Source: an uncultured archaeon (lineage in GTDB: Archaea > Asgardarchaeota > Lokiarchaeia > Sigyniarchaeales > SOKP01). Taken from it: a stretch of DNA of 64,000 nucleotides. Shown in pieces: positions 15,805-30,567 of this stretch (its first letter is position 1; each line of letters begins with the position of its first letter). The notes below the pieces were generated by a model, which was given only the letters and a program-made list of their open reading frames with translations, had not been told where the DNA came from and did not search any database. The stretch is from assembly GCA_964486045.1 (NCBI GenBank), contig CAZALK010000001.1:256001-320000 (forward strand). The letters are read 5' to 3'. Both the position numbers and the translations under genes were made by a program.

Positions 15805-17199
15805 ATGCCAAATTCAAAGAAAAAAGATAATCCAACTCGAGAACTGCCGATAAGCCTACAAGGTATCGAAACTATTTTACTATTTTTAAATGAAAAGGAT
15901 AAAACAACGTCGAGTATCCGAAATATTAGCGAACAGACCAGACTTTCCATGAGAGTCGTAAAAAATATACTTTTACAATTGGAAAAATTCAATCAAGTAG
16001 AGAGAGTCACAGTAAAAAATAACATCCTTCCAAAATGGGGGATTACAAAATTTGGAAAGAAAGTTATAAAAGAAGCGAAGGGTATAGAAAAGAATATTAA
16101 ATTTTTGAGTAGAGAAGATGAATTGTTATATAGAATTTCTGTCTATGAAAGCATTGATGACTTAAAAGAAGAAAGCAGGCAAAAACAAGAATCTATTATT
16201 TCTGAATTAGGGGCCTTACAAGTTGAATTAAGTAAAATCTTTGGTCCAATCCTTAACATAAATAATCCGATTTTTGAAGATTTGGTGAGTTTTTTTATTA
16301 AGCGAGTCAAATTTCTTAACCAACGAGTATCAAATTTACTTAAAGACCCAATTGCCAGTTATTCATTAAAAAAGATAGGTGAAAAACAGAAAAAAGTTTC
16401 AAAAGAAAAAGAAAAACTTTTATTCACAGAAATTTATTTCTTCAATTCAGTAATATTAAACGAAATAAAGCGGATATCTGATTTCATGATTAATTTATCG
16501 CACTTTATTGAGAATGAAGCGATTTCTAATGCTTATTCAGTAGCAATCGATCTGAGGGAAGAGATTAGATTATTAACAAGTTTTATTTATCAAAGAGAAT
16601 CTTTAACTGTAAATTCTCATAAACTCCCAACTGAAGATTTAAAGCAGTTATCTAAAAATAAATTTAGCGTAGAAATTTTAGATAATATAATTGAAATTCC
16701 TATGGATGACCCACAGCGAATGAAGGGAATAGAAGATGCTGTTTTAGAATTCTTGGCTTCGCTAAATAAAGGTGAGAAACTATTAAAAGACCATAGCCAT
16801 GAAATTTCTGAAAATATTCCTTTATATGCTTTATATCAATTAATTTTGGATGAAAAACCAAATTTGAATTTTACCATAGATAAATTGGAACGTGTAATAA
16901 ATTCTCTTGCTGATAGTGGATACATACCAGGAATAAAGATTATCCAAGAAGATGAAGACCATTATCTTAAAGTTGTTCAATTGAGAGCACATGATATTTC
17001 AGAGGATGAATCAAATCTCATTTCTTTTGCGCTTAAACTTCAAAAATTCACAATAGCTGATATGATAGGAGCAAGTGGTTGGACCATGGCAAAAATTACT
17101 AAAATTTTAAATACACTTACCGAGCTTGGAATCATCAAATATTCGAAATCTTTTTTACACGGTGAACAATGGTATATAGTTTCTGAGCATAATGATTAA
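15805..17199 (+). CDS. N-terminal wHTH, coiled coil and C-terminal tandem winged helices resembling ESCRT-II Vps22/Vps36 (EAP30)
   Basis: N-term SIRNISEQTRLSMRVVKNILLQLEK; C-term IPLYALYQLI...LERVINSL...KVVQL...ISEDESNLI...FTIADMIGASGWT...LNTLTELGII fits the EAP30 pattern. Confidence 0.6.
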   Translation: MPNSKKKDNPTRELPISLQGIETILLFLNEKDKTTSSIRNISEQTRLSMRVVKNILLQLEKFNQVERVTVKNNILPKWGITKFGKKVIKEAKGIEKNIKFLSREDELLYRISVYESIDDLKEESRQKQESIISELGALQVELSKIFGPILNINNPIFEDLVSFFIKRVKFLNQRVSNLLKDPIASYSLKKIGEKQKKVSKEKEKLLFTEIYFFNSVILNEIKRISDFMINLSHFIENEAISNAYSVAIDLREEIRLLTSFIYQRESLTVNSHKLPTEDLKQLSKNKFSVEILDNIIEIPMDDPQRMKGIEDAVLEFLASLNKGEKLLKDHSHEISENIPLYALYQLILDEKPNLNFTIDKLERVINSLADSGYIPGIKIIQEDEDHYLKVVQLRAHDISEDESNLISFALKLQKFTIADMIGASGWTMAKITKILNTLTELGIIKYSKSFLHGEQWYIVSEHND

Positions 17200-17252
17200 T
17201 TTAAGAATATATAAAATAATTGAATAAAAAAATTAATTTAAAATTAAAATAA

Positions 17253-18116
17253 GTGAGGATAAACATGTTTAGAGAAATAAAACATAAAAAGTTCAAAGAT
17301 TCTGACCCTCAAATTATAGCATGGCAGAGAGGAGATAGGGGAGCTTTCGATACCCCGTTAATGTATATCTTTCCTCAAAGGGGAGATAACATTAAGGAAA
17401 AGAAATTTTTTGCTGTAAAAGACTATGAAAAAGCAATTTTTTACAATAAAGGAGCGTTAGTTGCTGTTCTTGGAGGGGGTATATACGAACTTGATAAGAA
17501 TGCAAGAATTAAAGGGACTGAAATAGTTTGGATTGATACATCCTTTACTGAAATTCCATGGGGTATTCCACAATCGGAGGGTATTCCTACTAAAGATGGA
17601 TATATTATTGGATTATATGGAGATTTAAAATTAAAAATTAGTGACCCAAAAATATTCTATAACGATGTCGTAGCAGGTACGAAGATATGGACTATTCAAA
17701 ATCTTAAAGAGTGGATTGTTGGTCTTATACATACATCTTTACGAGATATATTCAAGACTTGTACTGCGAAAAGTATAATTTTAGAAGATCGTGAGCGTGT
17801 AATTAACTTAATAACATCTAAAGTTACTGAAGAATTTTTAAGATATGGTTTAGAACTTGAAACATTTAATGTAATTGGTATAAAAGCTCCTGAAGATGCT
17901 GAAAAATTATTAATGGATGATAGAGAAAAAATTCAATATATTACTAAACAGAAAAAGGATCTCAAGAATCGCATTGAAGATCTAAAGAATAAATTAAAAG
18001 AACAACAGGATCTTTTAATAAATGATAAAATTACTCAAGAAGATTACGAGAAAAAGAAAAAGCAAATTCAAATTTTTATCGACGAAGTTCAAGAGGAATT
18101 AAAAACAATTAGTTAA
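17253..18116 (+). CDS. SPFH/band-7 domain protein with coiled coil and SHOCT-like C-terminus
   Basis: AVKDYEKAIFYNKG...GGIYEL; WG; GLELETFNVIGI; C-term KITQEDYEKKKKQI. Confidence 0.75.
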   Translation: MRINMFREIKHKKFKDSDPQIIAWQRGDRGAFDTPLMYIFPQRGDNIKEKKFFAVKDYEKAIFYNKGALVAVLGGGIYELDKNARIKGTEIVWIDTSFTEIPWGIPQSEGIPTKDGYIIGLYGDLKLKISDPKIFYNDVVAGTKIWTIQNLKEWIVGLIHTSLRDIFKTCTAKSIILEDRERVINLITSKVTEEFLRYGLELETFNVIGIKAPEDAEKLLMDDREKIQYITKQKKDLKNRIEDLKNKLKEQQDLLINDKITQEDYEKKKKQIQIFIDEVQEELKTIS

Positions 18117-18201
18117 AACAAATTATATTATCCTAATTTCAGGGAAATCTCGAAAAATGAAGAATAATTAATTAAAAAAATTAGACAAAGAAAAAATTTA
18201 A

Positions 18202-28627: not shown

Positions 28628-28695
28628 TTATTAAAAAAAATTAATACTTTTAATTTAAGGGAAGAGAAGAAATTCACCTAATAAAATAAATTATA

Positions 28696-29478
28696 ATGTC
28701 AAAAACAAATTTTGAAAAGAGATTTCTAGCGATTAAGAATCTAGTTCAAGAAGAATTATTTTCAAACGCGAAAAATGAGTTGAACAACATTAAAGAGGAG
28801 GCTAAACTCCATAATTTGGATGAAACTCTTAAGCGGGCAAATGAAATATTAAATTTATGCGAAAAATTAGAAAAAAATATGGAACTCAAAAAAAAAATTT
28901 CCGTGATTAAAAATCTAACTCAAGAACAACTATTTTCAGAGGCTTAAAAAGAGTTAAACGACATTAAACAGGAGGCTAAACTCCATAACTTGGATGAAAT
29001 TCTTAAGCGTGTAAATGAAATATTAAATTTATGCGAAAAATTAGAAAAAAAGAAGGAGCTCAAAAAAACAATTCCCAGGATTAAAAATCTAATTCAAGAG
29101 AGGAAATTTCCCGATGCTAGTGTCGAGTTAAAAAATGTTAGAAATATTGCCAAACGATATAATTTAGACGAAATTATTAGTTGGGCTCAAAAGAATTTAG
29201 ATATATGCAATAAACATATAATTAAAAAGACAATATTAGAATTAGGAACTAAATTTACGCGTCTACAAATCGTAGAAATTTCGGAAGAATGCGATGTAAA
29301 GGATGAGAAATTAATTGTAGATATTGTAAGAGAGATGATTGATAACAAAGAAATATATGCCCAATATTTCTCTAGTACAAAATCAGTTGCGTTTAATCAA
29401 CAGGCCAATATTGATGAAATTGACAAATTAATGGCGACTTATAAAGAATGGGAAGAAAAGAAAGTTGAAAAGAAATAA
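28696..29478 (+). pseudogene. Three 58-aa helical repeats plus PCI tail, interrupted by an in-frame TAA at 28945
   Basis: The two tracked ORFs share a frame; 174-nt repeat; the stop aligns with an AAA codon in repeat 1. Confidence 0.8.
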
Positions 29479-29523
29479 ATCTTATTTATTTTTATAATAG
29501 AAAGATAAGAATCAAAAATGTAA

Positions 29524-30567
29524 ATGTGGGATAGAATGACAAAAAATTCTAAGAGAGAAACTATTATTGATGAAGAGATAGATTTAGAAGATGTTACCTA
29601 TCAAGAAATAATTAACGAGATAAATGGAATTTTTAACCATTTAACACTTGAAATAAATAAACAGATAAAACAAGTAGAAATTTTAACAGATGAAGAACGA
29701 TGGACAAAGGAAAAAGCGAGACGAAAAGCACAAATAATATCTTTCAGAGGGGCACAAATCCCTCGATATGAAGCAGATTTCCTTCAAAAAATAGAGAAAC
29801 AGGTAGGCAAACAATTTAGGAAAGTAGATATATCAATTATTGAAGACGGAGAAAGTCAATGGAGCTTTTCAGTAGAGAATCAGCGAATTACTGGAATTGA
29901 TCTCTTTGAATGTTTAATAAGGGTTCTCCCAGATACAATAGGCAAGCTAAAATCGCTCAAAGTGCTAGGTTTGGGAGGTAATACTTTAATGACTCTCCCA
30001 GAGTCAATAGGCGACCTAAAATCGCTCCAAATTCTAGGTTTGGGGCGTAACCAGTTAAGGAATCTCCCAGAGTCCATAGGAAACCTCACCTCGCTCGAAG
30101 ACCTGTATTTATATCGGAATAAGTTGACAACTCTCCCGGAGTCAATAGGCAACCTTAAATCTCTCCAAGAATTAGATCTAACGAAAAACCAATTAACATC
30201 TCTTCCGGAGTCAATAGGCAACCTAAAATCGCTCTTTTCTCTAGATCTGCGTGGTCACCAATTAACATCTCTTCCGGAGTCAATAGGTAACCTAAAATCG
30301 CTCGAAAATCTAGATCTGCGTGGAAACCAATTAACATCCCTTCCGGAGTCAATAGGCAACCTAAAATCGCTCTCTTATCTAGATCTACGTGAAAACCAAT
30401 TAATATCTCTTCCGGAGTCAATATCTAAGCTTACAACGCTCAAGAGATTAAATTTAACAAATAATCTTTTAGCTAGAAAGCCAAATTCAAAAACTAAATC
30501 CATTTTAAAGCAGCTAAAAAAAAAATGTTTAAAGAACAAAAATATGATATATATATTGATAGATTAA
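29524..30567 (+). CDS. LRR protein (about 8 x 23 aa) without PCI tail
   Basis: LPESIGNLKSL repeats. Confidence 0.9.
   Translation: MWDRMTKNSKRETIIDEEIDLEDVTYQEIINEINGIFNHLTLEINKQIKQVEILTDEERWTKEKARRKAQIISFRGAQIPRYEADFLQKIEKQVGKQFRKVDISIIEDGESQWSFSVENQRITGIDLFECLIRVLPDTIGKLKSLKVLGLGGNTLMTLPESIGDLKSLQILGLGRNQLRNLPESIGNLTSLEDLYLYRNKLTTLPESIGNLKSLQELDLTKNQLTSLPESIGNLKSLFSLDLRGHQLTSLPESIGNLKSLENLDLRGNQLTSLPESIGNLKSLSYLDLRENQLISLPESISKLTTLKRLNLTNNLLARKPNSKTKSILKQLKKKCLKNKNMIYILID

Follow-up and report, generated by a model that had tools for sequence, protein, structure and literature searches.

The DNA analysed here, referred to as the window, is a stretch of 64,000 nucleotides from an uncultured Asgard archaeon (assembly GCA_964486045.1, contig CAZALK010000001.1, positions 256,001 to 320,000). 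Between positions 15805 and 30567 it carries a gene cluster which, at a probability of about 75%, encodes an archaeal UFM1-type protein conjugation system that shares its descent with the eukaryotic core of the modifier UFM1, its activating enzyme (E1) UBA5 and its conjugating enzyme (E2) UFC1. The identity of the parts, the intactness of their catalytic residues and their linkage were seen by sequence comparison, structure prediction and synteny. The assembly comprises 5.18 Mb and is 99% complete, and its closest homologues are labelled Promethearchaeota/Lokiarchaeota. The cluster consists of 15 open reading frames (ORFs), all on the + strand and at the places given by an original prediction made from the sequence alone, which had described a co-oriented cluster with an E1, a JAMM protease, a Val-Gly-ending modifier of 88 residues and a translationally coupled E2.

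Seven genes form the fixed core of the system: an EAP30-like gene (15805..17199), an SPFH/Band 7 gene (17253..18116), a CDC48-N-like gene (19594..20676), the UBA5-like E1 (21726..22553), a JAMM/MPN+ metalloprotease (25039..26250), the UFM1-like modifier (26289..26555) and the UFC1-like E2 (26552..27094). This core recurs across Asgard loci, and the remaining genes differ among genomes. As the gene set is kept across several Asgard families, and seven of the eight matches in the 5.18 Mb genome to the PCI-tail proteins described below fall in the locus, the clustering is not due to chance. A promoter and terminator scan of the locus with bacterial-type models gave matches at chance level only.

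The E1 frame opens at ATG 21660, the start originally proposed, but GTG 21726 is the more likely start; it yields a protein of 275 residues, as is usual in close homologues. The starts proposed for the modifier (26289) and the E2 (26552) were upheld, and that of the JAMM protease (25039), an ATA codon, is likely. The best PDB match of the E1 was UBA5 (E 2e-47 versus 2e-31 for MoeB), in an alignment that takes in the YxRL motif near the N terminus as well as the catalytic Cys (22293-22295), which lies in the motif CVASLPSTM and is invariant in 19 aligned rows. The E1 ends in an amphipathic helix, EIDDLIDKL, spaced like UBA5's UFC1-binding sequence (UBS), and most copies carry such a helix. Because a first E1 tree showed long-branch joins, the final one used plasmid and archaeal MoeB/ThiF sequences as outgroups; it comprised 19 Asgard operon E1s, 16 eukaryotic UBA5 proteins from metagenomes and two Thermoplasmata E1s, the bacterial UBA5-like proteins of PMC10183829 being outside the sample. 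These three groups formed one clade apart from MoeB/ThiF with a support of 95/88 (98/92 with a Njord sequence), and the support of each group was 100/97 for the Asgard operon E1s, 100/100 for eukaryotic UBA5 and 100/100 for the Thermoplasmata E1s.

The tree gives no resolution of the branching order among the three groups; the Asgard E1s are monophyletic and the eukaryotes are not nested inside them. Judged by these sequences, the Asgard system is therefore a relative of the eukaryotic core rather than its demonstrated ancestor, and the word "precursor" used in the original prediction overstated the case. A Njordarchaeota locus (L102:279-2763) encodes a UBA5-like E1, which is divergent, together with a JAMM-like protein and a small one that ends in MLG; no E2 match lay in the fetched stretch.

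The E2 begins at TTG 26552, overlapping the modifier stop by 4 nt, and carries the motifs GP...W..R...E and GIAH...W. Its Pfam UFC1 match was below the cut-off (E 1.6e-4), and single-sequence PDB searches with the E2 and with the modifier returned nothing relevant. When a 31-row E2 profile was used, 26 UFC1 chains ranked before any other E2; a further search put 29 UFC1 matches ahead of other E2s. The structural model (pLDDT 89) matched UFC1 with Z scores of 16.5 and 16.0, the next E2 reaching 9.3. The catalytic C137 (26960-26962) and K119 are invariant among the relatives. K119 is part of a CGK triplet aligned to the TAK of UFC1, its Lys invariant and the Thr replaced; there is no HPN motif, and an insertion ahead of the Cys makes the Lys-Cys spacing 18 versus 8 in UFC1. 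According to the alignment, the back pocket of UFC1 is largely retained as regards its hydrophobic and its basic residues. Canonical E2 genes sit elsewhere in the genome, and the window E2 is not among the UQ_con matches. Among 1.84 billion representatives scanned, no more than 44 matched the E2, namely Asgard-labelled proteins, one Thermoplasmata-type protein and proteins bearing the eukaryotic UFC1 motif; no E2 relatives were found in viral contigs.

Several UFC1-like domains were seen in other architectures. A SIR2-like domain, tetratricopeptide repeats (TPRs), a UFC1-like E2 and a degenerate ubiquitin-like (Ubl) domain share one chain in L050:9831-12524 and in P0092, the latter with Ser at the Cys position. 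A family of 300-540 residues (P0119, P0121-P0123, P0125, P0128, P0129; two members labelled Hodarchaeales) has a UFC1-like domain without the MICH motif, and its N-terminal domain may be Ubl-like. P0099 and P0101 have the UFC1-like domain joined either with leucine-rich repeats (LRRs) or with a zinc ribbon plus a PCI-like domain, so that E2 and adaptor parts stand in one chain.

The modifier is already mature, its 88 residues ending in Val-Gly (IIDRGIVG); with this, all motifs quoted in the original prediction are accounted for. Its model (pLDDT 85) has a beta-grasp fold. In the Foldseek search UFM1 chains came first and made up 10 of the top 13 matches, most at a root-mean-square deviation of 1.1-1.3 A; TM scores were 0.79-0.83 against UFM1 and 0.60-0.72 (2.4-4 A) against ubiquitin-type folds. 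A PDB search with the modifier profile gave nothing relevant. In the family the terminal Gly is invariant and the Val nearly so, and the position of UFM1 R81 is Ile in the window copy. Thus the E1 lay in the UBA5 clade and not with MoeB/ThiF, the E2 was closest to UFC1 and the modifier proved to be beta-grasp, in each case the opposite of what the original prediction had named in advance as evidence against itself. The E1 matches and tree, the E2 profile and structure and the modifier Foldseek search agree with its view that the parts match the UFM1 pathway and not ubiquitin, SAMP or ThiS.

The same results bear on the idea of a sulfur-carrier or SAMP-like system, in which a MoeB/ThiF-type E1 would serve a ThiS/MoaD-like protein and the E2 would be incidental. 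Pfam does name the E1 ThiF, but the E1 tree leaves out MoeB/ThiF, the modifier ends in VG instead of GG and has a UFM1-like fold, and an E2 with an invariant Cys is always linked and often fused. We regard this explanation as very improbable.

The JAMM gene (Pfam Prok-JAB E 7e-8) has its catalytic residues E24, H82, H84, S93 and D96 intact and invariant in 16 rows, followed by a long C-terminal extension of conserved length. It starts at ATA 25039, 6 nt past a ribosome-binding motif GGTGA (25028-25032), whereas the first ATG (25249) would cost the catalytic Glu. GGTGA followed by ATA, ATT or ATC recurs at this place in about ten related genomes, which makes a non-AUG start likely from the sequence; the start is ATG in L041, and further genomes carry an ATG at this very codon. 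The ribosome-binding site with an ATA start was preferred to a frameshift, which was also considered for the beginning of the gene and rejected. Human UFSP1 likewise starts at a non-AUG codon (PMC10952357). The modifier is fused to the E2 in nine loci (12 of 46 database homologues) and carries 1-3 extra residues in five, the fusion or extension always beginning after VG. UFSP (peptidase C78) is absent from the locus and had no match in the genome, though the positive controls gave no match either. As the JAMM motif is intact, no UFSP is nearby and the fusions and extra residues always follow VG, the JAMM protein is likely the maturase cutting after VG, by analogy with the JAMM enzymes that cleave Ubl-E2 fusion precursors in Bub (PMC11601596) and with the Caldiarchaeum Rpn11 (PMC6043591).

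The labels that the original prediction had given to the three partner genes were supported. The EAP30-like protein has an N-terminal winged helix, a helical middle and a C-terminal EAP30/Vps22 (ESCRT-II)-like winged-helix pair; its profile matched SNF8/Vps22 (E 4e-6), and Pfam EAP30 was found in 7 of 16 members. The SPFH protein matched Band_7_1 (E 4.5e-12). The CDC48-N-like protein combines that domain with a middle domain and a C-terminal zinc ribbon and has no ATPase. Its label was not recovered by Pfam, PDB or Atlas searches and held in the profile-profile test, where hhalign to CDC48 N-domains gave 94% (E 1.4e-7) and the controls 0.1%. In L. ossiferum (L045:6070-7464) the CDC48-N-like and EAP30-like genes are fused, which suggests that the two proteins act together.

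The remaining genes are, for the most part, members of one modular family. In seven proteins in or near the locus, variable N-terminal parts precede a PCI winged helix, which is followed by a terminal helix; the tail of an eighth protein is divergent. The array of modular adaptors noted originally is real, but its range had been drawn too narrowly. Within the cluster the variable genes lie at 18202..19548 (N-terminal domains, PCI winged helix with Pfam PCI E 3e-5, divergent tail helix), 20803..21690 (degenerate small-GTPase-like domain with Pfam Arf E 2.7e-4, PCI, tail helix), 22607..24142 (LRR, PCI, tail helix), 24233..24982 (three membrane helices, PCI, tail helix), 27143..28627 (two membrane helices, TPRs, PCI, tail helix) and 28696..29478 (PCI, tail helix). 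The last is broken in the assembled sequence: the ORFs 28696-28947 and 28990-29478 (83 and 162 residues) are a single frame split by an in-frame TAA at 28945-28947. An LRR protein without the tail (29524..30567) is a candidate member by its presence in the locus only. Outside the range first noted are a gene with TPR, PCI and tail helix (13968..15344, - strand, divergent from the operon), an LRR protein with a divergent tail helix (9530..11188, + strand) and two tail-helix remnants preceded by stop codons, apparently decayed adaptor genes (7706-7786 and 13738-13818). These upstream adaptor genes are interspersed with a DUF2441 gene (12318-13007) and an AAA/HerA-like ATPase gene (5679-7700).

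The tail follows the consensus I-x-E-I-D-x-L-M-x-x-Y-x-x-W-E and ends in conserved lysines. The spacing of its hydrophobic residues equals that of L394/L397/M398/M401/M404 in the UBA5 helix (PMC8481289) and W5/I8/L11/F15 in the UFL1 helix (PMC10702826), both of which bind UFC1 and compete for one pocket on it (PMC8481289, PMC10702826). A PDB search with the tail-helix profile retrieved neither UBA5 nor UFL1. Among 400 Asgard genomes the tail was found in 21 of the 38 with the E2 and in 14 of the 362 without it, and outside the family used for the profile in 8 of 17 versus 0 of 248. Given this co-occurrence and the concentration of genome-wide tail matches in the locus, the idea that the PCI-tail genes are unrelated insertions was dropped. 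In the two closed genomes of Heimdallarchaeum the tail matched 9 and 14 times; many of these matches lie no more than 110 kb from the operon, and most are on membrane proteins of 850-1,450 residues with a single pass. Tandem large single-pass membrane proteins, each ending in a tail helix, were seen there in L297-L299 (G016:C1 611-642 kb; G015:C1 545-560 kb).

The complex of the E2 with a tail module was predicted with a score of 0.35, the best control having 0.00; the runs agreed in at least 81% of contacts, and the partner pLDDT was at least 77. Of 80 solved pairs, 58 reached the mark used for such predictions, as did 2 of 110 mismatched ones, and the passes at 0.60 or below comprised 7 of the 80 solved pairs and both passing mismatches. 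The prediction lends weak support to binding of the tail to the E2 and may reflect memory of solved UFC1-helix complexes.

The PCI part also points elsewhere. Its best PDB matches were eIF3c, Rpn3, Rpn5 and CSN2/3/4 (E 0.005-0.2), two members have the layout of TPR, winged helix and C-terminal helix, and the JAMM protein has its long extension of conserved length. The C-terminal helices of proteasome lid and COP9-signalosome subunits form a helical bundle. With the same enzymes, the PCI-tail proteins and JAMM might thus build a lid- or signalosome-like PCI:MPN complex, held together by the tail helices and regulating tag removal, with no docking to the E2. A PCI domain with a C-terminal helix and an MPN+ subunit are indeed both encoded, a likeness that holds at the domain level only. 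However, near-identical tails on very different paralogues, the large single-pass receptors included, suit a docking motif better than fixed subunits, and the weak predicted binding of the tail to the E2 speaks in the same direction. We consider the PCI:MPN complex unlikely.

A number of observations weigh against the proposed reading. The modifier is only ~11% identical to UFM1, and Pfam Ufm1 matched in 0 of 400 Asgard genomes, the modifier included, the model being blind to this family. The wide structural search with the modifier ranked generic Ubl domains first; that UFM1 was not among its top 50 representatives is not counted as evidence against. The E2 has CGK instead of TAK and the insertion before its Cys. 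The UIS of UBA5 (residues 334-346) has no counterpart in the E1, where ~20 residues without a UIS-like motif separate the last CxxC from the terminal helix; this helix is absent in several loci, that of L. ossiferum included, and the E1 end ranks 45th of 4,250 C-termini against the eukaryotic UBS matrix. The tails rank 48th-1200th in the same comparison, and their spacing is also generic for amphipathic helices. Together with the likeness of the PCI part to lid, signalosome and eIF3 subunits, this makes the PCI:MPN complex a real rival. Fourteen genomes of family f1 have a tail match without an E2 match; among them are some with broken or truncated loci, and some of the matches are internal PCI helices. 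As kin genomes are not independent, the tallies of tail and E2 overstate significance. Finally, the whole reading is built on sequence comparison, structure prediction and synteny.

The E2 was found in 38 of the 400 Asgard genomes, in 9 of 90 high-quality ones and in eight families. The synteny survey covered 36 loci with an E2 ORF. In these the modifier was present 33 times, the E1 and the JAMM gene 30 times each, the CDC48-N-like gene 27 times, the SPFH gene 24 times and the EAP30-like gene 23 times; contig ends account for many of the gaps. Among the carriers are Ca. Sigynarchaeum, Ca. Heimdallarchaeum aukensis and endolithica, and the cultured Ca. Lokiarchaeum ossiferum B35; the closed L. 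ossiferum genome (CP104013.1) has the operon at about 1,036,070-1,040,790. One genome (G241) holds two operon copies (L037, L059), and in L056, L057 and L104 nothing is left but fragments of a broken E2 or the pair of EAP30-like and SPFH genes, which shows duplication and loss. A four-gene cassette of Ubl, E2, E1 and JAMM, with small genes ending in VG, occurs in two Thermoplasmatota genomes (L100, L101), though in just 1 of 301 sampled Thermoplasmatota, so that the Asgard-specific reading of the original prediction went too far.

This distribution raises two further explanations. The patchy spread and the rare Thermoplasmatota copies could mean that the genes have a eukaryotic donor or pass from one archaeon to another, in which case they would be uninformative on ancestry. 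Yet the Asgard E1s are not nested in eukaryotic UBA5 (both groups at 100/97 or above), their clade takes in Loki-, Heimdall- and Sigyn- lineages among others, and the operon structure has archaeal ribosome-binding sites; such transfer is improbable. The patchiness, the broken or lost loci and the birth-and-death of tail genes also recall antiviral or anti-mobile-element conjugation like that of bacterial Bil, which would tag foreign proteins, with the variable LRR, TPR and receptor genes as sensors. The E1-E2-Ubl-JAMM gene set is that of Bil/Bub (PMC11601596), and this explanation concerns the role of the system and is compatible with UFM1-type chemistry. Against it, PADLOC gave only a generic E1 match and marginal JAB matches and none for the E2 or modifier, bacterial defence E2s fit the E2 model far worse (Z 8.2 for BubB and 6.3 for a CBASS E2 versus 16.5 for UFC1), and the fixed partners are SPFH, EAP30-like and CDC48-N-like proteins. 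A defence system of this kind is rather doubtful. As to the role, which may be membrane-protein turnover or defence, patchiness and adaptor turnover fit defence, while the fixed partners fit membrane handling.

The eukaryotic UFM1 pathway (UFM1, UBA5, UFC1; the E3 UFL1-DDRGK1-CDK5RAP3; UFSP1/2) shares with this system the UFM1-type fold with a VG end, a small E1 whose adenylation domain bears the Cys and which usually has a helix at its C terminus, and a UFC1-type E2 with an N-terminal extension, no HPN and a Lys at the K108 position. Here, in contrast, the genes form an operon, JAMM stands in the locus instead of UFSP, Ubl-E2 fusion is frequent, CGK and an insertion stand for TAK, and the partners are CDC48-N-like, SPFH and EAP30-like proteins and the tail-helix family. 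UFL1 and DDRGK1 were not found in the locus; an unlinked frame of 806 codons elsewhere (G000:C10:51436-52095; L002-L004) with repeated Pfam E3_UFM1_ligase matches is a candidate UFL1-like protein. Since the UIS and a linked UFL1-type E3 are lacking and UFSP was not found, we class the system as a variant and not a member of the eukaryotic pathway, and the description of it as "complete" was too generous.

Among prokaryotic systems, Bil and type I Bub (PMC11601596) likewise combine Ubl, E1, E2 and JAMM without a RING E3, and in Bub I a Ubl-E2 fusion is cut by JAMM; their E1, E2 and Ubl belong to other lineages and Bub is without catalytic cysteines, whereas all three parts here are UFM1-type. 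The archaeal ubiquitin operons (Caldiarchaeum and Asgard Ub-ESCRT; PMC6043591, PMC9192718) resemble it in the operon of Ubl, E1, E2 and JAMM maturase and in the ESCRT-like link, but have a GG-ending ubiquitin, a canonical E2 and a RING E3; no RING was among the Pfam matches of the proteins of our locus. The original prediction had supposed that isolated Asgard UFM1-like matches might already be reported, and the main text of Kostlbacher et al. 2026 (PMC12962969) does describe Asgard Ufm1 homologues, with none in other prokaryotes, and names no UFC1, UBA5, operon or partners. They are probably the same modifier family; unlike in that Asgard-only account, VG-ending small genes occur here in the Thermoplasmatota cassettes. 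Our literature search, with subscription papers outside its scope, found Asgard Ufm1 alone as published and no description of an archaeal UFC1 or such an operon.

By analogy with the eukaryotic pathway, the archaeal UFM1-type system would work as follows. The E1 would adenylate the terminal Gly of the modifier and then hold it as a thioester on the Cys of its crossover loop, use its C-terminal helix to dock on the E2 and pass the tag to C137, from which the E2 would attach it to a lysine of the target. JAMM, and not UFSP, would cut after VG where the modifier has a tail or an E2 fusion, and would probably also remove the tag. Targets associated with membranes would, once tagged, perhaps be recognised or processed by the CDC48-N-like, EAP30-like and SPFH proteins. 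In the least certain step, the PCI-tail proteins would dock the E2 by their tail helix, like the UFL1 helix, as interchangeable E3-like adaptors, or would themselves be tagged cargo, as the conserved lysines at the end of the tail allow; we put this at slightly below even odds. More tentative still is the picture of a modular RING-free E3, in which an expandable set of soluble sensors and membrane receptors shares one C-terminal helix with which it docks on the back face of the E2, where UBA5 and UFL1 bind in eukaryotes, and tagged membrane cargo is handled by the co-encoded CDC48-N-like, ESCRT-II-like and SPFH proteins.

An earlier survey (PMC10183829) found UFM1 and UFC1 only in eukaryotes, derived UBA5 from bacteria and called the pathway a mosaic. 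That an E1, an E2 and a modifier are linked in archaea argues for an archaeal origin of the core as a single unit, and the UIS, UFSP and the UFL1 scaffold would then be later eukaryotic additions. The system offers four proteins for reconstitution, and its presence in Ca. Lokiarchaeum ossiferum, which is cultured and has a closed genome, makes conjugates searchable by proteomics. The tail-helix family provides a concrete and cheaply checked model of target choice without a RING E3; if this model is true, the helix mechanism of UFL1 would predate the eukaryotes.

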